Assembly: GCA_013387205.1 (NCBI GenBank)
Contig: WARV01000019.1
Location: 3,642-67,641, forward strand
Direction of reading: 5' to 3'
DNA: 64,000 nt
Source of the DNA: Patescibacteria group bacterium
GTDB taxonomy: Bacteria; Patescibacteriota; Doudnabacteria; UBA920
Position numbers and translations under genes: made by a program. The notes beneath the pieces were generated by a model, which searched no databases, was not told where the DNA came from, and saw nothing but the letters and a program-made list of their open reading frames with translations. Shown piece after piece: positions 5,431 through 42,505 of the stretch (position 1 is its first letter; every line of letters starts with the position of its first letter).

Positions 5431-6099
5431 ATGCTTTACGTTGTAGCTACGCCTATCGGCAATTTAAAAGATATTACTTTGCGCGCCATAGAAACACTAA
5501 GGTCTTGCGATTTTGTGATTGCGGAAAACCCTGGGTACTCCAAACGGCTTTTGCAGCATATTGATGCCTGGCCTAAAGAAATTGTCCAGTTTGCGGAGTT
5601 TAACGAGCAGCAAGTGGTAAAAGAACTGGCGCGCAGGATGGTAAAAGGAGAAGGCTGCTTGATTACCGATGCAGGCACGCCGGGAATTTCTGACCCTGGT
5701 TTCAGACTGGTAAGGGAATGTGTGAAAGAAGGCGTTCAGGTCGTGCCAATACCTGGCGCTTCCGCGGCAGTTGCCGCGCTTTCGGCTTCCGGCCTGCCTA
5801 CTGACAGGTTTTTATTCTTAGGCTTCCTGCAAAAGACCGCTGCCAAAACCATTGGCGCTTTGCAAGCCGCGGCAGACACCGAAGCTACGGCAATATTTTA
5901 CGAATCACCGGAAAGAATTTACAAAACCATGGGTTATGTTGCCAATGCGTTTCCGGCCAGCCAAGTCGTAATAGCGCGCGAACTGACTAAAATGCACGAA
6001 GAATTTATCCGCGGCACAGCCGGAGAAGTCCTGGAAAAGCTTAAAGAAAAAACATCCATCAAAGGCGAATTTACCGTTCTGATTAGCTTCAAATCTTAA
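5431..6099 (+). CDS. rsmI: 16S rRNA (cytidine1402-2'-O)-methyltransferase RsmI (tetrapyrrole-methylase fold)
   Basis: MLYVVATPIGNLKDITLRAIETL...ENPGYSKRLL N-terminus typical of RsmI. Start chosen at the internal ATG of the 5284 ORF. Confidence 0.8.
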   Translation: MLYVVATPIGNLKDITLRAIETLRSCDFVIAENPGYSKRLLQHIDAWPKEIVQFAEFNEQQVVKELARRMVKGEGCLITDAGTPGISDPGFRLVRECVKEGVQVVPIPGASAAVAALSASGLPTDRFLFLGFLQKTAAKTIGALQAAADTEATAIFYESPERIYKTMGYVANAFPASQVVIARELTKMHEEFIRGTAGEVLEKLKEKTSIKGEFTVLISFKS

Positions 6100-6915: not shown

Positions 6916-7422
6916 ATGATTATACTAGGTATTGACCCGGGAACAGCCACAACCGGATACGGAATTATCAAGCCAGCCAAAAGGCAAGGGGAGTTTGAAT
7001 TGGTGGATTTTGGCGTAATAACAACCAAAAAAGACTTGAGCGATGCCGCGAGGCTAGAAATTTTAGCAGGAGATTTGGAAAGCATTATAAAAAAATTCAA
7101 GCCAGATGCCGTGGGGGTGGAAAAACTTTTTCTAACCACCAACCAAAAAACCGTAATGACCGTGTCCCAAGCCAGGGGAGTGGTGCTGTTTATCTGCCAA
7201 AAGCATAAACTGCCAATTGCAGAATTCACGCCGCTGCAGGTAAAAAATTTCATTTGCGGTTATGGCAAAGCCGACAAAAAACAAGTGCAATACATCATTC
7301 AAAAAACTTTCAAACTAAAATCCGTCCCAAAGCCGGATGACGCGGCAGACGCTTTGGCTATTGCGGTCTGCACCGCTTACCGCCAGCAAAGAGAAAACAA
7401 TTTATCCACTAGACGAAGATAA
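6916..7422 (+). CDS. ruvC: Holliday junction resolvase RuvC
   Basis: MIILGIDPGTATTGYGII N-terminus and catalytic acidic residues. Start chosen at the internal ATG. Confidence 0.85.
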   Translation: MIILGIDPGTATTGYGIIKPAKRQGEFELVDFGVITTKKDLSDAARLEILAGDLESIIKKFKPDAVGVEKLFLTTNQKTVMTVSQARGVVLFICQKHKLPIAEFTPLQVKNFICGYGKADKKQVQYIIQKTFKLKSVPKPDDAADALAIAVCTAYRQQRENNLSTRRR

Positions 7423-7561
7423 ATGCGGCTGTTATAATTGGCCTAAGTCAAGCTCCTAATCAATTTAATCCCGGTTAGATACATCTAACAGGAAAGTTCC
7501 CCTAAAATTTGAGCCTGATAAACGGCCAAGGATTTTACGGAACTCAAGGAGAAACATAAAA

Positions 7562-7666
7562 ATGTTTTTTGATGACGAACAAACCACAACGCCAGCCGAT
7601 GACACAATGGCCGACACGCCAGAAGAAACACAGGAAGAAGAAACTGCTGGCGAAGAGCAAGTATAA
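7562..7666 (+). CDS. Possible small acidic protein (34 aa, MFFDDEQTTTPADDTMADTPEETQEEETAGEEQV)
   Basis: AGGAGA RBS 9 nt upstream. Followed immediately by a hairpin terminator. Not in the ORF track because it is under 60 aa. Confidence 0.25.
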   Translation: MFFDDEQTTTPADDTMADTPEETQEEETAGEEQV

Positions 7667-12255: not shown

Positions 12256-13650
12256 ATGCCCTATCTTCTCGCTCTCACTCTTCTCCTCACCCCAGCCTAC
12301 GCTATTAGGTTAAGTCTTTTTGGCCTTCCAACCAACTTTTTTATGGTTTGGGTATTTTTGTTCTGGATAATATTCTTTGCTTACTTAATAGCAAAAAAAC
12401 GTGTGTTAATATTTTTAACGGCCGTTAAAAATATTGATAAAAAAGTTTTAATTTTAACATCTTTATTTTTACTGTCGGGATTAATTTCTTTGTCTGCCAA
12501 AGGAATTGCCCAGAAAAAAATCGGCCAGTTTATTGTCTTATTCTTGCAGCCGATAAGCATATTTTTAATTTCAATTTTCATCATCAAGCAGCAACCCAAG
12601 ACAAAATCCTTACTGCTTGCCACATGCTACTTGCTACTAGCCGCAAGCGGCCTGTATGCCATTTTCCAATATTTCACTCTTGTAGGACTGCCACCAGAAT
12701 GGTGGGGAAACAGCGTTGAGCCTAAGAGAGCAATAAGTTTTTTCAGCCACCCAAACTTTTATGCTCTTTTCACCGCACCTCTTTTGGCATTATTGATTCC
12801 GCATTTGTCCGGCGTCATTCTGAGCCGAAATGCATCCGCCAGTTCGACAAGCTCATGGCGCCCTGAGCAAAGTCGAATGGGCGACGGCGAAGAATCTCAA
12901 GCCAAGAAAGAGATCCTTTGCTCCGCTTCCCCCTCAGCTAAAACTACCGGGGACAAGCAGGATGACGCCAAATTTAAATACTTATTTCTGATTAGCTGGT
13001 CGGTCGGCGCTATCGGCCTGCTCTTGTCCATGTCGCGCGCCGGATGGCTTGGCCTGGCCGCTGCAATTGCGGTTTATGCTTTTGTGGCAGCAGATAAAGA
13101 AATCAGGAAGATAGTAATAGGAGCGGCCGCAATTCTTTTTATAATAGTCGCTATTGTCCCTAACTTGCGCTACAGAGTAACTTTGCCATTTTACGGGGAA
13201 AAGTCTACAGTCTCGCGCCTGTCTTTATGGAATACAGGAATTAAAGGAATAAAAGAATCGCCAATAACCGGCCTTGGCTTAACCGGCTTTGCCAACAACT
13301 GGCAAAAATTAAATACCGATCCAAACTTAGATACCCATAACTTTCCGCATAATATCTTTTTGGATCTTTGGGTGGAAACAGGAATCTTAGGACTTATAAG
13401 CCTTATAGGACTAATAGGACTAATAATCTACCGCGGCCTGCGGCATTCTCTCCTCCTGTCCCAGGAGGAGTACCCAGCTTCGCTGGGGGAGGTGGTAGAA
13501 GTTAAGGATAAAGGATTAAAAATTAAAGATTTACCTCTTGCCGTCTCCCTTTTCCTCATCGCCCTAATTTTCCAAGGCCTCATCGACAACCCGTACTTCA
13601 AAAATGACCTGGCGATGGTGTTTTGGATAATACTTTCTTTGGCAGTTTAA
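12256..13650 (+). CDS. O-antigen ligase (Wzy_C) family membrane protein carrying an in-frame repeat insertion
   Basis: Multiple TM helices. SRAGWLG signature. Residues ~186-238 are encoded by an RPE-like element. Confidence 0.65.
   Translation: MPYLLALTLLLTPAYAIRLSLFGLPTNFFMVWVFLFWIIFFAYLIAKKRVLIFLTAVKNIDKKVLILTSLFLLSGLISLSAKGIAQKKIGQFIVLFLQPISIFLISIFIIKQQPKTKSLLLATCYLLLAASGLYAIFQYFTLVGLPPEWWGNSVEPKRAISFFSHPNFYALFTAPLLALLIPHLSGVILSRNASASSTSSWRPEQSRMGDGEESQAKKEILCSASPSAKTTGDKQDDAKFKYLFLISWSVGAIGLLLSMSRAGWLGLAAAIAVYAFVAADKEIRKIVIGAAAILFIIVAIVPNLRYRVTLPFYGEKSTVSRLSLWNTGIKGIKESPITGLGLTGFANNWQKLNTDPNLDTHNFPHNIFLDLWVETGILGLISLIGLIGLIIYRGLRHSLLLSQEEYPASLGEVVEVKDKGLKIKDLPLAVSLFLIALIFQGLIDNPYFKNDLAMVFWIILSLAV
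12409..12434. repeat. 26-bp perfect palindrome ATATTTTTAACGG/CCGTTAAAAATAT inside the O-antigen ligase CDS
   Basis: Exact symmetry. Encodes IFLTAVKNI on both strands. Confidence 0.9.
12811..12969 (+). mobile_element. RPE-like MITE copy (159 bp, 53 codons) inserted in-frame in the O-antigen ligase gene
   Basis: Terminal inverted repeats GGCGTCATTCTGAGC / GCAGGATGACGCC. Near-identical to the GGCGTCATCCTGAACCCGAATGCATC segment at 51245. Confidence 0.6.
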
Positions 13651-13656
13651 AGACTA

Positions 13657-13682
13657 CACTTTTTCACGGCCGTGAAAAAGTG
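13657..13682. repeat. 26-bp perfect palindrome CACTTTTTCACGG/CCGTGAAAAAGTG (ACGGCCGT family; terminator position)
   Basis: Lies between the O-antigen ligase stop and the SDR gene start. Confidence 0.85.
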
Positions 13683-13744
13683 CGGTATTATCTGCAAAAT
13701 AAATAGGACGGTAGATTTTTAAATAACATTAATCAACTCTTAAA

Positions 13745-21251: not shown

Positions 21252-21285
21252 ACTACGATAAATGACGGCCGTCATTTATCGTAGT
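21252..21285. repeat. 34-bp perfect palindrome ACTACGATAAATGACGG/CCGTCATTTATCGTAGT (ACGGCCGT family)
   Basis: Shares a 22-bp core ATAAATGACGGCCGTCATTTAT with the palindrome at 42464. Confidence 0.9.
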
Positions 21286-31957: not shown

Positions 31958-32044
31958 TCGACTATATAAAGGTTTTTGTTTATAATTAAACTAGTCCTAT
32001 ATGGTCAAAGAGCACCTTTGGCCAACATCAATAACACTATTTTT

Positions 32045-34864
32045 ATGGCCAAAACAGAAACACCAAAATACATGTTAGTTGACGGCAACGCGCTTATTCA
32101 TCGCGGTTATCACGCCATGCCCAATTTGTCCACGAAGAACGGCGAATTGACCGGCGCGGTCTACGGCTTTAGTTTGATATTGCTGCGTGCCATAGCCGAC
32201 ATTAAACCTACGCACATTGCCGTGACTTTCGATTTGGCTGCCCCGACTTTCAGGCATGTGGCTTACGCGGAATACAAAGCCACCAGGGTAAAAGCCGACC
32301 AGGAACTTTATGACCAGATCCCCCGGGTCAAAGAAGTGGTTAAGGCTTTAAACATCCCTATTTTTGAAAAAGAAGGCTACGAGGCCGATGACTTGCTGGG
32401 GACACTCGCTACGGATATTTGTAAGCACTGCAAAGGGCAGTGCGAAGTATTTATCGTTACCGGTGATTTGGATACTTTGCAACTGGTTAACGATTGCGTT
32501 AAAGTTTACACTCTTAAAAAAGGACTGGCTGACACTTTGGTTTACGATGAGCAGGCAGTAGTTAACCGCTATGGATTAAACCCTAACCAGATGGTGGATT
32601 ACCGCGCGCTTAAAGGCGATCCTTCCGACAACATCATTGGCGTAAAAGGAATTGGCGAAAAAACCGCGGCTGAACTGATAAGGAGATTTGGTAGCCTTGA
32701 TGAGTTATATAAGTTCGTTCACAAAGCTGCGAAGTCCCGTACCGAACCGCCAGGTTCTGGTACTGGGATTAAAGCCAAAAATAAACCAGAGGACATCAGG
32801 CCGAGAATTTTAGAGCTTTTGGAAAAACAGGAAGCTTCTGCCCGCCAGTCTTTTGAGTTATCCAGGATTATGTGCGAAGTGCCCGTAGAAACTAGTTTGC
32901 CCAAATACGAATTCGGCCAGGAAAATTTTGAAGCGGCTTTCAAGATGTTCCAGGATTTGGAATTTAAAAGCTTGATTGCCAAACTGCCGAAAACTTTTGC
33001 GCCAACGGTCAAGCCCGAAGAGTTTGAAGCGGCAGGCAGTACGGCAGAGCCTTTGCATAAAAAGCCGAGCAAGCAGAAATATATTTTGGTGGAATCGGAA
33101 AACCAGCTTAAAGAAGCATTGAAAGATTTCCATAAACAGCCGGAAATTGCCATTGATACGGAAACGGACAATGTGAATCCCATTGACGCCAAAGTCATAG
33201 GCGTATCTTTGTGCTGCATTGACGGCAGTGCTTACTATATTCCTGCGCCGCTGGCTTTGGAAAATCCTGAACTAAAAAAAATAATTGAAGGACATGCCAA
33301 AAAAGTAGGGCATAATTTGAAGTTTGATTATCTGGCTTTAGAAAATGCCAAGATTAATTTAGCCAGTTTGTCTTTCGATACCATGGTGGCTTCGTATCTT
33401 TTAAATCCCGGAACACGCCAGCACAATTTGGACGCTTTGGCTTTTAGCGAACTTGGCTACCATATGGAGCCGATTGAGGAACTGATTGGTAAAGGCAAAA
33501 AGCAGATAACTATGGACCAGGTGCCGCTGGATCGCGTGGCGCATCATGCCTGCGAAGACGTGGATATGACTTACCGCCTTAAGAGCCTTTATGAGCCGGA
33601 ACTGAAAAAATCCGGCTTGAGCGGGATCTTTTACAATATTGAAATGCCGCTCGTAGAAGTTTTAGCCAACATGGAAAGGTGGGGAATTGAACTCGATGTG
33701 GAGTTTTTGGCTGAACTGTCAGGCCAGGCTGAAAAAGAAATTAACAAACTGGAAAAAGAAATCCACGACTTGACCGGCGAGCCGGAATTGAATATAAATT
33801 CACCTTTGCAGCTAAAAAAAGTTTTGTTTGAAAAGTTAAAATTGGAGCCTGTTAATAACAGAAAAACGAAAACCGGCTTGTCCACTGCCGCTTCGGAACT
33901 GGAAAAAATTATTGGACAGCACCCGGTTATTGAAAAACTTTTGGATTACCGCGAGCTTTCCAAACTGCAGTCCACATACTTGTTGGCCATGTCCGAGCTG
34001 GTCAATAATAAAACCGGCCGACTGCACACTAGCTTTAATCAAACCGTGACAGCGACAGGAAGATTATCGTCATCTGACCCCAACTTGCAGAACATTCCAG
34101 TCAGGGGTACGGGTTTGGGCAGCCAAATTCGCAAGGCTTTTAAGCCGGCCAAAGGCTTTAAGCTTTTGTCTTTGGATTATTCCCAAATCGAGCTAAGGAT
34201 TGTGGCGCATTTGGCCCAAGACCAAAAAATGATGGCCGTGTTTAAGAACGAAGAAGATATCCATACCAAAACTGCCATGGAAATTTTTGGCGTTAAGGAA
34301 GAAGATGTAACCAAAGACATGAGGCGCGATGCCAAAACCATCAATTTTGGAATTTTATACGGCTTGTCGAGTTTTGGGTTGTCTAACCGGATTGGGCAGG
34401 TAAGCCGAGCCGAGGCTAAAGAGTTCATTAATAAATACTTTGCCGCGTATCCGAGAATTAACGATTATATAGAAAACATCGTCAAGGTCGCGCACGAACA
34501 GGGGTTTGTCACCAATGAGCTGGGCCGGGTCAGGAAGTTCCCCGAAATCCATGCTAGGCAGTGGGCGGTCCGGGCAGCGGCTGAGCGCGCAGCTATAAAT
34601 TTTCCCATACAGTCTTTGGCAGCCGACGTAATCAAGGTGGCCATGGTTGATATATATAAAGAAGTTAGAAGCAAGAATCAAGAAGTTAGGATGTTATTGC
34701 AAGTACATGACGAATTAGTTTTCGAAGTACGTGAAGATTTGGTGGAGTTTTACGCGAAGAAATTTATTCCTTTAATGGAGAACTCTATAAAATTATCAGT
34801 TCCTGTTAGAGTGGAAGCCAAGGCAGGGGATAATTGGGGAGAGATGGATCAGGTTAGTTTATAG
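32045..34864 (+). CDS. polA: DNA polymerase I (5'-3' exonuclease, 3'-5' exo-like domain, polymerase)
   Basis: N-terminal MLVDGNALIHRGYHAM FEN domain. Polymerase motif A (LSLDYSQIELR), motif B (RRDAKTINFGILYG) and motif C (QVHDELVFE). Start chosen at the internal ATG. Confidence 0.95.
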   Translation: MAKTETPKYMLVDGNALIHRGYHAMPNLSTKNGELTGAVYGFSLILLRAIADIKPTHIAVTFDLAAPTFRHVAYAEYKATRVKADQELYDQIPRVKEVVKALNIPIFEKEGYEADDLLGTLATDICKHCKGQCEVFIVTGDLDTLQLVNDCVKVYTLKKGLADTLVYDEQAVVNRYGLNPNQMVDYRALKGDPSDNIIGVKGIGEKTAAELIRRFGSLDELYKFVHKAAKSRTEPPGSGTGIKAKNKPEDIRPRILELLEKQEASARQSFELSRIMCEVPVETSLPKYEFGQENFEAAFKMFQDLEFKSLIAKLPKTFAPTVKPEEFEAAGSTAEPLHKKPSKQKYILVESENQLKEALKDFHKQPEIAIDTETDNVNPIDAKVIGVSLCCIDGSAYYIPAPLALENPELKKIIEGHAKKVGHNLKFDYLALENAKINLASLSFDTMVASYLLNPGTRQHNLDALAFSELGYHMEPIEELIGKGKKQITMDQVPLDRVAHHACEDVDMTYRLKSLYEPELKKSGLSGIFYNIEMPLVEVLANMERWGIELDVEFLAELSGQAEKEINKLEKEIHDLTGEPELNINSPLQLKKVLFEKLKLEPVNNRKTKTGLSTAASELEKIIGQHPVIEKLLDYRELSKLQSTYLLAMSELVNNKTGRLHTSFNQTVTATGRLSSSDPNLQNIPVRGTGLGSQIRKAFKPAKGFKLLSLDYSQIELRIVAHLAQDQKMMAVFKNEEDIHTKTAMEIFGVKEEDVTKDMRRDAKTINFGILYGLSSFGLSNRIGQVSRAEAKEFINKYFAAYPRINDYIENIVKVAHEQGFVTNELGRVRKFPEIHARQWAVRAAAERAAINFPIQSLAADVIKVAMVDIYKEVRSKNQEVRMLLQVHDELVFEVREDLVEFYAKKFIPLMENSIKLSVPVRVEAKAGDNWGEMDQVSL

Positions 34865-34955
34865 CTTTTAGTATTCAAAAAATCGGCAAAAGGCCTTCGC
34901 CAGCTGGCGAATTTTTGCTATGATATAGGAAAGGCAAACTTAAGACTTTAAAGTT

Positions 34956-35558
34956 ATGGCATTATCTACTTTTCATCAAAAACAAAAGAATTTAACGAGC
35001 GAAGAAATCCAAAGCCTTATTAGCAGGAGAGAGTTTGAGTTGGAGCAGGTGTTCCAGCAGGTCGAGGTTAAGTCGCCGAACACTCCGTTAAGGATTGCAG
35101 TGCTAGGCTGCGGGGATATTAGGATTGTCGACCCGTACAGGAAAATATTCGCCGGGCTTTTAAACAGGCAGGTCAGTATAAATATTTTTGACATTACGAT
35201 TGAACATTTAAAAGGCGAGAGCAATGTTTATGAATTTGACGCAACCCAGCCGGTGCCCGAAGGCCCTTATGATATTGCTTATGCCAACGAACTGTTAAAG
35301 TTCATTGAGACAGAAAGGCAGTGGTATGCCATTGAAAATTCCTACGGAGCGTTAAACGACAACGGCGTGGCTATCCATATTTTAGACAACCAGGATTTTG
35401 ACGAATCTATTCCTGCCGCAGAAGGGTTTTATAAAGTGCCTCTGGAAATGTGGAAGAGGAACATGTATATGCAGGGTATTCAATTTTACGAAATTCCGCT
35501 GTTTACCGGTCCCAAGAGAAAGGTGGAAGAAGCTTTGGCTTTAGTGCTGGTTAAATAA
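34956..35558 (+). CDS. Small class I SAM-dependent methyltransferase-like protein
   Basis: Motif I-like IAVLGCGD, then acidic FDIT, then YDIAYANELL, then LNDNGVAIHIL, in the order expected for a Rossmann methyltransferase. Confidence 0.4.
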   Translation: MALSTFHQKQKNLTSEEIQSLISRREFELEQVFQQVEVKSPNTPLRIAVLGCGDIRIVDPYRKIFAGLLNRQVSINIFDITIEHLKGESNVYEFDATQPVPEGPYDIAYANELLKFIETERQWYAIENSYGALNDNGVAIHILDNQDFDESIPAAEGFYKVPLEMWKRNMYMQGIQFYEIPLFTGPKRKVEEALALVLVK

Positions 35559-35642
35559 TATTTTAATTTTATCCACAATTGTTGACAAAAGGTGGACAAA
35601 CGTATACCATAATATTATAGATAATACTTAAAGTATACGCAT

Positions 35643-36656
35643 ATGCCAGAAACAAATATCAACGAACAAATAAAAGGCGAGATAATAATTTACAAAGCTG
35701 CCGAAGGCCCGGAAGTCTTAGTTAATTTTGATAATGATGATGTTTGGGTAACTCAAGCAGATATTGCCAATCTGTTTCAAACAGAACGAAGCGTCATAAC
35801 CAAACACGTCGGCAATATTTTTAAATCCGCAGAACTAAGCGAGAATTCAGTATGTGCAAATTTTGCACATACTGCCGCTGACGGAAAAACATATAAAGTT
35901 AAGTATTATAATCTTGATGTAGTAATTTCTGTTGGGTATAGGGTAAATTCAAAAAAAGCCACGTTATTCAGGAAATGGGCAACTCAGAAACTAAAAGAAT
36001 TGATGGTAAAAGGCTATACTGTCCAAGCAAAAACTTTGAAAGAGCAGCATAATTTCCAGTTAAAGGAATTACAACAGACGGTTAAGTTGTTCCAGAATGT
36101 TTTAGACCAGCAAAGGGCCGAGGGATACGAAAAGGATTTGCTGAATATTATTACGGACTACGCTGGAACGTGGGCGATTTTAAACAAGTATGACGAAGGC
36201 GAGCTGCGGATAGAAGATGTCACCAAAAAGACTGCCAAAAAAATCGGCCATGAAGAAATTGGGAAAATTATTGAAAAATTCCGGGCGCGGTTAGTTGCCA
36301 AAGGCCAGGCCAGCGGGTTTTTCGGACAGCAGTCCCCGGGCAAACTCCAAGCGGTTTTGGGTAGTATTTTCCAAACTTACGAAGGAAAAGAATTGTATCC
36401 GTCCTTGGAAGAGAAAGCGGCTCACTTGTTTTATTTCTTGATTAAAGACCATCCTTTTGTGGACGGTAACAAGCGGATTGCCTCTTTGGTGTTTTTGCTG
36501 TTCTTAGTTGAAAACCGGTTTTTAATAAACAGGAAAGGCGAGCGCAAAGTCAACGACAGCGCCTTGGCGGCGTTGGCATTGCTGGTGGCTGAAAGCAAGC
36601 CGGAGCAAAAGGATGTCATGGTCAAACTGGTAGTGAACATGATAAATAAAAAATAA
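35643..36656 (+). CDS. RhuM-family N-terminal domain fused to a Doc/Fic-family toxin domain
   Basis: N-terminal region resembles RhuM/KilA-N-like proteins (YKVKYYNLDVVISVGYRVNSKKATLFRKWA). C-terminal HPFVDGNKRIASLVF Doc-type motif. Confidence 0.65.
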   Translation: MPETNINEQIKGEIIIYKAAEGPEVLVNFDNDDVWVTQADIANLFQTERSVITKHVGNIFKSAELSENSVCANFAHTAADGKTYKVKYYNLDVVISVGYRVNSKKATLFRKWATQKLKELMVKGYTVQAKTLKEQHNFQLKELQQTVKLFQNVLDQQRAEGYEKDLLNIITDYAGTWAILNKYDEGELRIEDVTKKTAKKIGHEEIGKIIEKFRARLVAKGQASGFFGQQSPGKLQAVLGSIFQTYEGKELYPSLEEKAAHLFYFLIKDHPFVDGNKRIASLVFLLFLVENRFLINRKGERKVNDSALAALALLVAESKPEQKDVMVKLVVNMINKK

Positions 36657-36669
36657 TAAAATAATATTT

Positions 36670-36758
36670 AAAACCCGCCCTTCGACCTGTTCGGGTTTGC
36701 TCAGGGTCGCCTCGAGTGAAATCGAGACGGCGACAAGCTTGAGGGCGGGTTTTGTTTT
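36670..36758 (+). terminator. Extended nested stem-loop (AAAACCCGCCC...GGGCGGGTTTT enclosing GTCGCC...GGCGAC) plus T-run
   Basis: 11-bp outer stem with an internal hairpin, after the Doc-like gene. Confidence 0.6.
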
Positions 36759-36843
36759 GCCCTTGAAAAATACCTGTTTTTTTGGTAAACTCAAGCATCA
36801 GCCGTGTAAGCTGTTATTTTTATACCAACTTTTGGGAGGATTA

Positions 36844-37206
36844 ATGGCAAGCTTGCAGTATACATTTGAGTCTGTTCTGTTGGAGTTGCAGGACTGGTGC
36901 GATAAAATAAGGCAGATTGAGAAAGGTCTGCCAACTGGCGTACCAAGAAACCAAAGAACTGGGAAGCAAAAAAAGAAAATGAAACTGGGGCTGGATAAAA
37001 TCCGCAACCACATGCCTGAGTTCAATAAGATTTGCTTAAAGATAGAAACCCTGGCCAGAAACGGAGAAAATCCGTGCAGGATGGCGAGTGCTCTGGTGGA
37101 GTTTCGCGAAAAGCAGCGCGTGTTGGCCATGAACGGGGGAGATTCCAATCCTTTGACTAGATTCATCAACAGGCATTATTTCTCTCGGGAAACCGTTGCT
37201 GTATAG
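36844..37206 (+). CDS. Hypothetical protein (121 aa)
   Basis: ORF with a plausible start MASLQYT. No recognisable domain. Confidence 0.4.
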   Translation: MASLQYTFESVLLELQDWCDKIRQIEKGLPTGVPRNQRTGKQKKKMKLGLDKIRNHMPEFNKICLKIETLARNGENPCRMASALVEFREKQRVLAMNGGDSNPLTRFINRHYFSRETVAV

Positions 37207-37207
37207 C

Positions 37208-37262
37208 GCGGCGGCGCAAAGCTTGAAAGCGAGCGGTGGCTATTTGGGCCGCCGCTTTTTTT
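37208..37262 (+). terminator. Hairpin terminator GCGGCGGC...GCCGCCGC followed by T7
   Basis: 8-bp GC stem, long loop, T-run. Confidence 0.6.
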
Positions 37263-37556
37263 GTGGATAATGTTTTGTTATTGCTGTTTTTGCTTTTAGG
37301 AATAAGGGAAAATATTTTTTTGGTATTTAAAAATTACTGCTATAATAAATTAAAGAAACGTTTCAAAAAACAACCTAAATCTAAATAAAGATAAAATTTC
37401 GATGGCGGCCATAGCTACAAAAAGTTATGGCCGTTTAAGTTAACCTAATTATGGATAAAATTGCAAAAAAGATTGAAATTGGACTAAGCTGGTTTGTTCA
37501 CACTGTTGCCAAGCTGTTTTTGGAATGAGAAGCGCTTTAAATAACAACAATTATCT

Positions 37557-37592
37557 CCGCCTTACAGCATTGCTGTAAGGCGGGATTTTTTT
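37557..37592 (+). terminator. Hairpin terminator CCGCCTTACAGCA-T-TGCTGTAAGGCGG followed by T7
   Basis: 13-bp perfect stem plus T-run. Ends a short transcript from the extended -10 TGcTATAAT at 37338-37346. Confidence 0.7.
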
Positions 37593-37704
37593 AAGTTTAC
37601 AGCAATATTTTAGTCAATTAATATGCTTTTTGGGGCAGTCTCTTGTTTTTGGGGAAATTAACCCTGATATTTAAGGCGGCCTTTTTGGCAGAGGAGAGTA
37701 TTTT

Positions 37705-40700
37705 ATGTCCAAAATCAGTATACTTAAATTTTTAATTTTTGGATTTTTTTTGTTTTTTGGTTTATTTCCTATAAAGCATGCGCTGGCCGCGCCCTTTTTA
37801 ACTTTGAGTCCGTTTAGCGGGCACGCGGGCGCAATCAGCGTGAGTGGCGGCGGGTTTTCCTCCGGGGAAGAAGTAAAAATCTTTTTAAGAGATTCAGCAG
37901 GATTGCCAGCTGCTACGGTCAAGGCCAAGGCCAACTCGCTGTTCGGTCCGGTAACGGTTAATATTCCCGGCGATACCACCCAGGGCAATATTATGGTTAC
38001 TGCCGTAGGTTCCACGAGCGGTACGACAGCCTCTAATACTTATTATGTTGTGCCTTTTGCTCCGGTGCTTGATGTAAAATCTAGCGGGAACACGCCAGGG
38101 ACGGTTATTACTTTGTCTGGTACAGGTTTTGCTCCGGGAGAACAAGTAAATTTCTTTATGGGCGGGGCTGGCGGCGGATCGACAAAGGCTGACGGCAAGG
38201 GAAATTTTTCCAAATTTTCTTTTACCATCCCGAGCCTCACTCCCGACACTTACCAGATAGAAGCCAAAGGCGAAACTTCTGGCAGCACGGCAAAAAATTA
38301 TTTTTATGTCGGTACTTTCTATCCCGTAGCATCGCCTTCTTCGTATTATGTCATGCCAGGCCAGGCAATAACGTTTAACGGTTACAATTTTGTACCGGGC
38401 GAACAGGTTAGTGTGGTGATGGGGGAAGGGCAGCAGCCGGTGGGCACTATAACTGTGTCAGGCAAAGGTGATTTTAAAAATGCCGGCAGCTTTACGCCTT
38501 CGGTTGACTTAGCCGGGCAAATATTGTCATTCCATTTAAAGAGTTCCAAGTCGGCAGCTGATATTCCGGCCACGGTATCCATCGGCCAGTTTAATTCTTT
38601 GGTCACTCCTTCGGCTTATTACTTAATTCCGGGGCAAACTTTGGATTTTTACGGCAAGGGCTTTGCCCCTAACGAAACCATCCAAATATACCAAGGTTCT
38701 GCTGCTGACAGCTTGAGCCCGACAAATACCATCACTGCCGATAAAAATGGCGGCTTTACCAAAGCGGGCAGCCTGGTTATTCCGTATTCGGCTGCAAATT
38801 CCAGTTTGGTTTTTAAGTTTGTCGGACAGAGCAGTAATACTTCTTCCAGTTTGTCAGTTTCGGTCGGTGCGTTTATTCCGGAAATCCACCCTTCGGAATA
38901 CTACCTGACGCCGGGCAAAACTTTTACAGTTTGGGGCAAGGGCTTTGCCGCGGGTGAAAAAGTTACAGTTACGGCCGGGCAGGAATCGGTTACGGTCGCT
39001 ACGGACAAGTTTGGCGTGTTTAAAACCGCCGGGCCGTTTACCGCGCCATATGAGCCAGGTACTAAAGTCGTGGTTACCGCCACAGGGCAAAGTAGCAGTG
39101 CTAGCATCAGCGTAACTTTGGGAGTCGGCAGTTTGCACCCGAATATTATCCCGGACAGTTACTATATAACTCCCGGAGACCAGGTTAAATTGTCCGGATA
39201 CGGGTTTGCGCCAGGCGAAGATGTTTTGCTGCAAAACGGTCAGCAAGAAACTTTGGCAACCATAAAGACCGACAAATACGGAAACTTCACGAACTATTCG
39301 GTATCCACGCCTTTTAGCGGTGTAAAAACTTTGGGCTTTAATTTTGTCGGCGCCAAGAGCGGAGCTGTGGGTACGGTTTCAGTCAGTATTGCCACGCTCC
39401 ATCCTTTGGTAATTCCTGATACTTATTACGTTGTGCCGGGTTCAACTATTAGGGTGATGGGTACCGGCTTTTCCAGAGGCGAGCCTATTACCATAACTGG
39501 CGGCACTACGGCTTTGACAGTCAATGCCACCAAAGACGGCTATACCCCCTGGATGCCGGTGACTTTGCCGATGGATTTGCTGGCCAAGGAAATTACCATT
39601 ACGTTTACGGGCAATGCCACGGGAGCGAGTAATTCCGCGGTTATCGGACTGGCTCCGTTTTTGCCTCAAATTTATCCGAGCACGTATTACACCGCTCCGG
39701 GAAGCCTTATAAACCTTAAAGGTACGGGTTTTGCCGCCGGAGAAAAAATAAATATTTTGTTCAACAAGGAAAACGCCACATCCACGACAGCGGATTTGAG
39801 CGGCGCGTTTTCCATCCAAGGGTTTAAAATTCCCATTACGTCTGATACTGCCTATTTTAATTTTGCAGGCGTCAGGAGCCAGGCTAGCGCATCTTTGAAT
39901 ATCGCCTTAGCTCCGTTTAACCCGCAAATCTACCCGAGTACGTATTACGCGGCGCCGGGCCAGACCGTGGATTTCTCCGGCGTCGGGTTTGCCCCGGGGG
40001 AGTCGGTTGATATTGCCATGAACAGCCAGCCGGTTGAATCCGATGCGGTAAATGACCAGGGCCGGTTTGCCACCAAGAAAATCACCATCCCGATAGACGC
40101 TACCAAGGCAGCTGTATTCACGTTCACCAGCCCAATCTCACACGCCAGCGCAACCATTACAGTAGCCTTGTCCGCGTTCCAGCCGCAAATCTACCCGAGC
40201 CAATATTTCTCGTCTCCAGGCACGCCTTTGTCGTTTAAAGGTTTTGGCTTTGCGCCGGGCGAAAAAATATCCATCATTTATAACGAACAAGAAGTGGCCA
40301 CAGCCACAGCCGATGCCAAGGGCAACTTCCTGTCAGATAAAATTAATTTGCCGATGGGCGTAACCAAGGCGCACTTTACTTTTGACAGCTCGATTTCCCA
40401 TTACAGCAATCCGATTGATGTTTCTGTGGGTGCCTTAAGTCCGGTGGTGACTTTGAGCAGTTATTACGAAGCCGGCGGCAAGCCGCTGACAGTTTACGGT
40501 ATGGGCTTTGCTTCCAAAGAGCAGGTTGCAATAACGTTTGATAATAACCAGCTCGGGACAGTTACCGCGGACCAGTATGGAAGTTTTTCTTTTAAAACCA
40601 CAGTGCCGTTTGTCGAAGCCGGAGAAAAACAGGTCCAAGCCACAGGACAGACAAGCGGTGTCAGTTCTTCAGCCACGTTTGGCTTGCCGCAAGCGTTCAC

Positions 40701-40974
40701 TAACGTGCAGCTTAAAGCTTACGCCGGAGCGCCGGGCAGTGCGGTAACTTTTGTTGGCAGCGGTTTTTCGCCATCGGAAACCGTAAATATCACCACTGAC
40801 AAGACAGGGGAGGCGGCAGTTTACAGTTTTAAGGCGGACGCCAAAGGAAACTTTAATAATTCCGGGTTTGTCATTCCGGCTAACTTTAAAGGCGGGCAGT
40901 TAATCATTACCCTAAAAGGCGAACACAGCCTGGCAGCGAGCAAGATTACTTATTATGTGACAGGAGCACAATAG
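37705..40974 (+). CDS. Large cell-surface protein (1089 aa) with ~12 tandem ~85-aa Ig-like repeats
   Basis: N-terminal signal/TM. The periodic motif P-S-YY-(V/L)-x-PG-x-x-(I/L)-x-x-x-G-x-GF-A-PGE-x-V recurs about every 85-90 aa. Confidence 0.8.
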   Translation: MSKISILKFLIFGFFLFFGLFPIKHALAAPFLTLSPFSGHAGAISVSGGGFSSGEEVKIFLRDSAGLPAATVKAKANSLFGPVTVNIPGDTTQGNIMVTAVGSTSGTTASNTYYVVPFAPVLDVKSSGNTPGTVITLSGTGFAPGEQVNFFMGGAGGGSTKADGKGNFSKFSFTIPSLTPDTYQIEAKGETSGSTAKNYFYVGTFYPVASPSSYYVMPGQAITFNGYNFVPGEQVSVVMGEGQQPVGTITVSGKGDFKNAGSFTPSVDLAGQILSFHLKSSKSAADIPATVSIGQFNSLVTPSAYYLIPGQTLDFYGKGFAPNETIQIYQGSAADSLSPTNTITADKNGGFTKAGSLVIPYSAANSSLVFKFVGQSSNTSSSLSVSVGAFIPEIHPSEYYLTPGKTFTVWGKGFAAGEKVTVTAGQESVTVATDKFGVFKTAGPFTAPYEPGTKVVVTATGQSSSASISVTLGVGSLHPNIIPDSYYITPGDQVKLSGYGFAPGEDVLLQNGQQETLATIKTDKYGNFTNYSVSTPFSGVKTLGFNFVGAKSGAVGTVSVSIATLHPLVIPDTYYVVPGSTIRVMGTGFSRGEPITITGGTTALTVNATKDGYTPWMPVTLPMDLLAKEITITFTGNATGASNSAVIGLAPFLPQIYPSTYYTAPGSLINLKGTGFAAGEKINILFNKENATSTTADLSGAFSIQGFKIPITSDTAYFNFAGVRSQASASLNIALAPFNPQIYPSTYYAAPGQTVDFSGVGFAPGESVDIAMNSQPVESDAVNDQGRFATKKITIPIDATKAAVFTFTSPISHASATITVALSAFQPQIYPSQYFSSPGTPLSFKGFGFAPGEKISIIYNEQEVATATADAKGNFLSDKINLPMGVTKAHFTFDSSISHYSNPIDVSVGALSPVVTLSSYYEAGGKPLTVYGMGFASKEQVAITFDNNQLGTVTADQYGSFSFKTTVPFVEAGEKQVQATGQTSGVSSSATFGLPQAFTNVQLKAYAGAPGSAVTFVGSGFSPSETVNITTDKTGEAAVYSFKADAKGNFNNSGFVIPANFKGGQLIITLKGEHSLAASKITYYVTGAQ

Positions 40975-42463: not shown

Positions 42464-42505
42464 TTACTCCTCTATAAATGACGGCCGTCATTTATAGAGG
42501 AGTAA
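42464..42505. repeat. 42-bp perfect palindrome TTACTCCTCTATAAATGACGG/CCGTCATTTATAGAGGAGTAA (ACGGCCGT family)
   Basis: Exact symmetry. 22-bp core identical to the palindrome at 21252. Confidence 0.9.

Follow-up and report, generated by a model that had tools for sequence, protein, structure and literature searches.

ORF2 is the second of three open reading frames (ORFs) that follow polA in a 64-kb stretch of DNA, here called the window, from a Doudnabacteria member of the Patescibacteria (assembly GCA_013387205.1, contig WARV01000019.1, positions 3,642 to 67,641 of the forward strand). The three genes are independent and do not make up one module. ORF2 stands alone and belongs over its full length to the RhuM/Fic/DOC family; a helix-turn-helix/RhuM module at its N-terminus is joined by a long helical linker to a Doc-type Fic domain at its C-terminus. 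The best overall explanation, which we hold with somewhat better than even confidence, is that of three independent genes in which ORF2 would encode a LexA-repressed, Doc-type growth-arresting enzyme that works without a Phd antitoxin. The protein itself joins a known family; what is gained here is its stable place in a conserved gene order, its probable control by the SOS response, and a conserved palindrome inside the gene. The features of the ORF2 transcription unit are as follows (aa, amino acids).

35582..35610, plus strand: ORF2 promoter, TTGACA, 17-nt spacer, TACCAT, 10/12 matches in a consensus scan
35592..35607, plus strand: quasi-palindromic operator GTGGACAAACGTATAC in the promoter spacer and -10 region, a putative LexA (SOS) box
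35643..36656, plus strand: ORF2, 337-aa RhuM/Fic/DOC family protein (PADLOC PDC-S23)
35673..36056, plus strand: N-terminal helix-turn-helix/RhuM module, aa 11-138 (PADLOC PDC-S05 and Pfam RhuM)
35848..35874, no strand assigned: intragenic perfect palindrome (13+1+13), CAGTATGTGCAAA-T-TTTGCACATACTG, codons 69-77 of ORF2
36285..36653, plus strand: C-terminal Doc-type Fic domain, aa 215-337 (Pfam Fic, TIGR01550, PHROG, and PDB relatives)
36450..36476, plus strand: catalytic motif HPFVDGNKR, aa 270-278, with Lys where AMPylating Fic proteins have Gly
36669..36754, plus strand: long compound hairpin and then a T-rich tract, a terminator-like end of the ORF2 transcription unit

The hairpin after ORF2 has a minimum free energy of -41.5 kcal/mol (z -3.4) and perfect arms of 12 nt.

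The family assignment comes from several profile libraries. ORF2 matches PADLOC PDC-S23 over its full length and collinearly (E 7.6e-116, aa 11-336 onto profile positions 4-325 of 327), and its N-terminal half matches many PDC-S05 (RhuM) profiles over aa 11-150, the best at 7e-59 over aa 12-215. The Pfam profile Virulence_RhuM (PF13310) matches aa 69-138 at 2.6e-23 (83 bits against a cutoff of 33.7), covering only model positions 1-72 of 252. The RhuM half of the RhuM/KilA-N resemblance given in a preliminary description of this DNA is borne out by that profile, while the likeness to KilA-N is weak (Bro-N, E 0.0089, under the cutoff). At the other end of the protein, Pfam Fic (PF02661) matches aa 215-288 at 4.9e-14 (53.4 bits against a cutoff of 24), the PHROG "Doc-like toxin" profile matches at 2e-18, and NCBIfam TIGR01550 (DOC_P1) gives 38.6 bits with a cutoff at 38.65. 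The Doc-type motif reported earlier is intact, and it did not prove degenerate on profile alignment: H270, P271, F272, D274, G275, N276, K277, and R278 are invariant across 29 aligned homologues. With Lys for the second Gly, HPFVDGNKR belongs, by what is established for Fic and Doc enzymes, to the Doc (kinase) type of motif and not to the AMPylating HxFx(D/E)GNGR type. The Fic inhibitory motif [ST]xxxE[GN] is absent from ORF2.

At least 7,995 homologues are present in the protein database, and the top 120 are equal in length with the same two domains. They are named "virulence protein RhuM/Fic/DOC family protein" (at NCBI) or "death-on-curing family protein" and come mostly from Patescibacteria, including Doudnabacteria. 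With thousands of members, the family is among the commonest uncharacterized toxin-like families in bacteria, and it is listed only as a defense "candidate." Compared with the family at large, ORF2 agrees in the full-length match, the two Pfam domains, and the identical catalytic motif, with no structural difference; what sets it and its close relatives apart is context, a syntenic chromosomal gene by polA and not a member of a restriction-modification (R-M) operon, island, or plasmid. At one locus (L014, 2397-3891), a full RhuM-Doc gene is followed in a different frame by a second, partial RhuM N-terminal module (aa 12-148). The SOS-induced Escherichia coli protein DinD, considered as a RhuM relative, has no meaningful BLASTP similarity to ORF2, and that link was dropped.

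Doc of phage P1 is an EF-Tu kinase and the toxin of the Phd/Doc system. ORF2 resembles it in the Fic fold and in the Lys for the second Gly (HxFx[DN][AG]NKR), and its closest sequence matches among solved structures are to the Doc proteins 9vzc and 3k33. It differs in having no Phd antitoxin gene and in carrying an extra 210-aa N-terminal RhuM/helical region, and the sequence similarity is confined to ~50-70 residues around the motif. An alternative is that ORF2 is mainly a DNA-binding regulator, with a Fic domain appended for regulation or sensing and not as a growth-arresting toxin. A helix-turn-helix predicted with moderate confidence, weak hints of a winged-helix fold, strong purifying selection, and the stable chromosomal position would all suit such a protein. 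The invariance of every Doc-motif catalytic residue argues instead for enzymatic activity, as does the match to the Doc-like toxin profile, and we regard a chiefly regulatory role as quite improbable. AlphaFold2, given 29 sequences, modeled ORF2 poorly (predicted local distance difference test, pLDDT, 66.8; predicted template-modeling score, pTM, 0.43), with local pLDDT of 76-89 at aa 31-110.

The preliminary description placed three genes between polA (31976-34864) and the gene for a giant, 1089-aa surface protein (37705-40974), and the ORFs are indeed found there, all on the plus strand. The features around ORF2 in this interval are the following (SAM, S-adenosylmethionine).

34896..34911, plus strand: terminator-like hairpin 3' of polA (consensus scan and sequence reading)
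34897-34924, plus strand: promoter-like site 5' of ORF1, overlapping the hairpin after polA (consensus scan)
34956..35558, plus strand: ORF1, 200 aa, class I SAM-methyltransferase fold
36844..37206, plus strand: ORF3, 120-aa near-orphan with its own GGAGG ribosome-binding site
37231..37257, plus strand: intrinsic-terminator-like hairpin and T-run 3' of ORF3 (consensus scan)

A scan of 34700-37800 against Rfam at E<=1 gave nothing real.

The earlier proposal was that the three genes form one accessory toxin-immunity or defense cassette, in which the methyltransferase or the small protein neutralizes or partners the Doc-like kinase. Adjacency on one strand speaks for it, and the consensus scan detected no terminator between ORF1 and ORF2. 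The proposal was followed through loci that carry ORF2 homologues, 82 collected first and then 11 more around seven close homologues; of the first set, a genome-contig scan with the single ORF2 protein gave 2 loci, and a metagenome scan with an alignment supplied the others. A tblastn search of ORF1 and ORF3 against the first 82 loci gave no match, and neither ORF3 nor its one relative, P0135, is present in any of the ORF2-homologue loci. Homologues of ORF1 appear in just two ORF2 settings among ~90 loci, both of them close relatives that have the entire polA neighborhood in common. In L090/L091, an ORF1 homologue (43% identity) lies directly upstream of the ORF2 homologue; in L095/L096 (36% identity), it lies two genes upstream with an HD-domain gene between. 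Both arrangements count in favor of the cassette. Within the same clade, L089, L092, and L009 keep ORF2 and lack ORF1, as do ~85 other loci. ORF1 homologues occur in turn without ORF2 in four other contexts (L001-L006), between unrelated ~575-590-aa genes with no RhuM or Fic gene near.

The signals in the window point the same way, with a promoter, operator, and terminator belonging to ORF2 and a Shine-Dalgarno sequence and terminator belonging to ORF3. Given the co-occurrence data and these separate promoter and terminator signals, the cassette reading is not supported, and we consider it very unlikely. The trio never co-occurs elsewhere, which the preliminary description had itself named as grounds for abandoning the idea. 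Its pairing of a methyltransferase with a kinase as toxin and immunity is likewise unsupported: ORF1 and ORF2 occur independently, and the ORF1 fold resembles small-molecule or tRNA methyltransferases. What was proposed as a cassette is a chance juxtaposition of genes.

Within the interval, it is ORF2 that is conserved, and ORF1, ORF3, and the gene for the surface protein vary. The gene order in the lineage of ORF2 is polA, 0-3 variable genes, RhuM-Doc, and further variable genes, followed by rpsT and uvrB, which are encoded on the other strand. Seven other genomes have polA adjoining or neighboring the ORF2 homologue (L090, L009, L089, L095, L092, L072, and L039). RhuM-Doc directly follows polA in L092 and is itself followed by rpsT and uvrB. 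An HD-domain gene intervenes in L089, with MscL and ABC1 genes downstream; in L095, a 237-aa gene, the ORF1 homologue, and the HD-domain gene intervene; and in L090, a 220-aa gene and the ORF1 homologue do, with a homologue of the giant surface-protein gene following. The adjacency to polA extends to L009 and to the much more distant L072 and L039. Identities to the window for polA and ORF2, respectively, are 71/64% in L090, 65/63% in L009, 63/66% in L089, 63/65% in L095, 61/67% in L092, about 41/39% in L072, and 41/42% in L039. ORF2 thus diverges in step with polA, the pattern expected of a gene that is inherited vertically and held under purifying selection. On the chromosomes of this Patescibacteria lineage, ORF2 is passed on stably in its place between polA and rpsT/uvrB.

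Elsewhere among candidate phyla, the gene is found after rpoBC (L093) and between ftsK and a rodZ-like gene that is followed by recA (L099). RhuM-Doc is close to recA in L099 (7001-10052) and in L007 (1509-4361), and lexA lies ~5 kb downstream in L099. Together with the linkage to polA and uvrB, the proximity to recA is a recurring association of RhuM-Doc with DNA-repair genes. In small-genome Patescibacteria, RhuM-Doc behaves as a stable core gene beside polA, recA, or rpoBC and not as a mobile island gene.

The promoter of ORF2 provides the evidence for its probable control. At 35582-35613, the window reads TTGACAaaagGTGGACAAACGTATACcataat, with the operator GTGGAC-N4-GTATAC between the -35 and -10 elements. 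The pattern TTGAC-N4-GGTGAAC-N4-GT(A/T)TACC, in which the -10 element overlaps the right arm, precedes the ORF2 homologues of L089, L093, L095, and L097. A weight matrix built from the operator sites finds one strong site in the window, the one before ORF2 (20.6); the runner-up (13.7) is inside polA. In 768 kb of collected sequence, every zero-mismatch copy of the 16-nt core GTGAAC-N4-GTWTAC is in a RhuM-Doc-type promoter except one, which precedes an operon ending in lexA in L099 (GGTGAACGATCGTTTACC). The lexA operon of L001 is preceded by the perfect palindrome GTGAACGCTCGTTCAC (GTGAAC-N4-GTTCAC). LexA usually represses its own gene, and GAAC-N4-GTTC is the core of the Gram-positive LexA box. 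Since the same operator precedes lexA operons, LexA is usually autorepressing, and the box core is shared, we infer that ORF2 is repressed by LexA and belongs to the SOS response. A parallel is found in the gut SOS meta-regulon, where a LexA site upstream of a metagenomic "death-on-curing protein (rhuM)" gene bound Bacillus subtilis LexA in vitro (Cornish et al. 2014, PMC3998124). Like ORF2, that RhuM/Doc gene stands behind a LexA-type palindrome with a GAAC-N4-GTTC-like core; the binding there was seen in vitro, whereas control of ORF2 is deduced from the comparison with lexA operons only.

Two operator-bearing promoters lie ahead of other genes. In L009 (4456-4818), a variant with one mismatch (GGTGTAC) precedes an 88-aa ORF with a "PGVYVLGS" stretch, and RhuM-Doc comes after it; in L097, a second such promoter at 5503 precedes ORFs of 91 aa and 99 aa. 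These small ORFs may be further members of the same regulon.

A mechanism can be proposed on this basis. LexA would occupy the ORF2 promoter and keep the gene silent, and DNA damage or some other inducer of the SOS response, for example phage or foreign DNA, would lift the repression, so that ORF2 protein is made only then. By analogy with P1 Doc and EF-Tu, the Fic domain would phosphorylate a translation factor and arrest growth until repression returns. Self-poisoning would be avoided through transcriptional repression, possibly helped by the N-terminal module acting in cis, in place of a Phd-type antitoxin. Repression by LexA would account for the persistence of a toxin domain that has no antitoxin, and an operator common to lexA operons offers a concrete trigger, the SOS response, for an antitoxin-less Doc-type toxin. 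The benefit could lie in abortive infection or in a checkpoint for DNA damage; the fixed location beside repair genes leans slightly to the checkpoint.

Several points weigh against this proposal. The kinase activity and its target are drawn purely by analogy, and the DOC_P1 score falls 0.05 bits under its cutoff. The 64-kb window contains no lexA or recA, and LexA control leans on two lexA operons from other contigs. The operator in the window departs from the perfect palindrome at 3/12 positions, the close relatives L090, L092, and L099 have no operator upstream of their RhuM-Doc copies, and GAAC-N4-GTTC is not enriched upstream of homologues from outside the candidate phyla radiation (8/90 versus 6% in controls). 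The ORF2 model has no PDB match by Foldseek at E<=0.001 and so permits no statement on domain packing, which bears on the suggested autoinhibition in cis. Deep synteny and slow evolution are also atypical for a defense gene.

In an alternative reading, ORF2 is a single-gene anti-phage (abortive-infection) system that senses a phage cue through its RhuM module independently of LexA, the promoter element being a lineage-specific feature or the site of another repressor. The tie between RhuM-Doc proteins and defense noted in the preliminary description holds, in that the family is PADLOC candidate PDC-S23 and recurs in type I R-M loci (PMC3710099). When three genes on each side were clustered in 79 loci, the only recurrent neighbor groups were proteins of ~1000-1170, 500-800, and 380-470 aa, identified by Pfam as the type I R-M subunits HsdR, HsdM, and HsdS; roughly 7/79 loci have HsdR, HsdS, or HsdM as direct neighbors. 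RhuM and DOC genes, often fused, were described within R-M operons as proposed toxins in layered defense (PMC3710099; PMC9881135), and the toxins known from within type I R-M operons include PrrC/RloC, Fic/DOC, and RhuM genes (Anantharaman et al. 2013, PMC3710099). Full-length homologues also reside on plasmids of Vibrio, Legionella, Aeromonas, and Pseudomonas, and RhuM-only relatives occur in streptococcal phage satellites and in Wolbachia phage WO. This distribution in R-M operons and on plasmids, phages, and phage satellites speaks for an anti-phage role. The window differs, with no R-M genes near ORF2 and an ORF1 that does not resemble a DNA methylase. PDC-S23 is, moreover, only a "candidate," and no publication naming it was found; the gene sits among housekeeping genes in a fixed position and diverges at the pace of polA, and its promoter element is common to two lexA operons. 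On these grounds, a dedicated, LexA-independent anti-phage system seems unlikely, though it is the alternative to which we give the most weight.

The same survey bears on the antitoxin. No conserved small neighbor that could serve as an antitoxin candidate was seen in the 79 loci, and ORF2 has no conserved partner gene. The lack of a Phd-type antitoxin, remarked on earlier, is confirmed in the window as well, which contains no such ORF.

The only characterized protein with a RhuM+Fic architecture is BifA of Streptococcus equi subsp. zooepidemicus, which is reported to enter host cells and promote phosphorylation of moesin in a way that depends on the histidine of the Fic motif (PMC6529018). 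ORF2 has the same order of N-terminal RhuM and C-terminal Fic as in the published description of BifA, and Patescibacteria are often episymbionts; a secreted or host-directed effector could be imagined from these facts. In the literature, however, BifA figures as a virulence factor that targets mammalian moesin, in an ecological setting entirely unlike that of ORF2. ORF2 has no signal peptide or secretion-system context, its family is present in thousands of free-living or environmental bacteria and within R-M loci, and its helix-turn-helix N-terminus and repressible promoter point to an intracellular role. We consider an effector function very unlikely.

Within ORF2, a repeat scan detected the 27-bp perfect palindrome at 35848-35874, in codons 69-77, at the beginning of the Pfam RhuM match. 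The copy in the window folds with -19.7 kcal/mol (z -4.6), and there is neither a second copy in the 64-kb window nor an Rfam match. A 10-16 bp near-perfect palindrome with an A/T-rich center is present at the homologous position in 88/90 distinct homologues, which have 36-67% protein identity and represent many phyla. The position is kept although both DNA and peptide differ, as in CAGTTGTCAAGGA-T-TCCTTGACAACTG, encoding SVVKDSLTTA, and CAACTATCCGGAA-A-TTCCGGATAGTTC, encoding STIRKFRIVR. The palindrome is also present in genes that encode RhuM alone, one each from a streptococcal phage, a phage satellite, and a Pseudomonas plasmid.

In an alignment of the 90 sequences, the 11 pairs are 80.5% paired, versus 50.9% after shuffling (0/500 shuffles reach the observed value), and in each of the 11 both partners have changed. 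Covariation scores 0.723, versus 0.221 for shuffled sequences and 0.08-0.23 with slid partners, and Watson-Crick cells number 888/979 once a 1-nt shift of the center is allowed in 17 sequences. RNAalifold recovers the same stem. A comparable palindrome score is reached by 1.6% of random 60-nt windows. The column pair 36-48, in which both members are third-codon positions, is 98% paired with four pair types, and the constraint is therefore on the nucleic acid and not on the protein. G-T and A-C mismatches are equally rare (15 versus 17), with no RNA-type tolerance of wobble pairs, which makes a palindrome at the DNA level, or a hairpin with strict Watson-Crick pairing, more likely than a typical RNA structure.

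The palindrome might form a hairpin or cruciform that regulates in cis, be bound by a protein, or owe its upkeep to template-switch repair. A frameshift or phase-variation site with a homopolymer center was also considered and is unsupported, with 90/90 homologues matching in a single frame. No description of a palindrome, hairpin, or inverted repeat of this kind in RhuM genes was found in the literature. Taken together, RhuM genes across phyla would carry a selected 10-16 bp palindrome, kept by compensatory changes that override the peptide; this would be an undescribed cis element, more likely at the DNA than at the RNA level, that may control or trigger the toxin family, and with LexA-repressed expression in Patescibacteria, the gene may be a DNA-damage growth checkpoint. 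We put this wider proposal forward tentatively, as one whose chances fall a little short of even. A covarying palindrome conserved in genes as far apart as those of Patescibacteria, streptococcal phage satellites, and Pseudomonas plasmids is a defined, synonymously mutable handle on the control or activation of RhuM proteins.

ORF1 was earlier called a 200-aa Rossmann methyltransferase-like protein, and this is right at the level of the fold, which is Rossmann-like with seven strands. Pfam Methyltransf_11 gives a match below threshold (14.2 bits against a cutoff of 21.2, E 0.073), and no Pfam family is above threshold. An AlphaFold2 model from the homologue alignment has a pLDDT of 90 and gives 945 Foldseek matches in the PDB at E<=1e-3 (template-modeling scores 0.55-0.65, 12-17% identity); the top 50 listed are all class I SAM methyltransferases of small-molecule, O-/N-, and tRNA types. 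The glycine-rich motif I, VLGCGD (A48, V49, G51, and D54), and an acidic residue after strand 2, D79, are invariant in the 13 homologues, the only ones found, and the family is a rare one from candidate-phyla bacteria. As modeled, ORF1 is a putative small-molecule or RNA methyltransferase unrelated to ORF2, and nothing points to a DNA methylase. The public gene call (P0121) is 172 aa long; residues 1-28 of the longer form are conserved in 12 homologues, which favors the 200-aa product from the ATG at 34956. Several homologue contexts (L001 2107-6216, L005 1968-7143, and the P0127 contig) are tight same-strand runs of 553-590-aa genes without a Pfam match, which may be the native context of the family. 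An aminoglycoside-2''-adenylyltransferase-like gene is present as well in one context.

ORF3 is a lineage-specific small protein. The hypothetical third gene described earlier exists and has no family, and its length is corrected from 121 to 120 aa, since the ATG at 36844 is the start with GGAGG upstream; an alternative TTG start at 36697 falls inside the long hairpin. A word-indexed protein search returned only the self-match, and the Pfam, NCBIfam, PADLOC, and PHROGs libraries gave no family match. When 1.84 billion representatives were searched exhaustively with phmmer, a single true relative came up, P0135 (37% identity, E 2e-13); a match to a 799-aa eukaryotic repeat protein (P0136) was spurious.

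Farther downstream, the 1089-aa surface protein (37705-40974) is repeat rich and has homologues in the same position downstream of RhuM-Doc in L090 (7707-10712, 45% identity) and L097 (9038-12154, ~38-40% identity). Upstream of its gene, the window has a small ORF of ~25 aa (MDKIAKKIEIGLSWFVHTVAKLFLE) at 37451-37528 and a strong terminator at 37556-37584. Two similar peptides with an LSW(L/F)(V/I)H motif are encoded at the same place in L090 (~7378-7452 and 7502-7606), and the small ORF may encode a leader or a small membrane peptide. The window also contains long perfect palindromes (30-44 bp), all centered on ACGGC|GCCGT, at 2893-2934, 12408-12435, 13650-13689, 21252-21285, and 42464-42505. 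The first of these lies between convergent genes, and the group may serve as bidirectional terminators or represent a repeated element.

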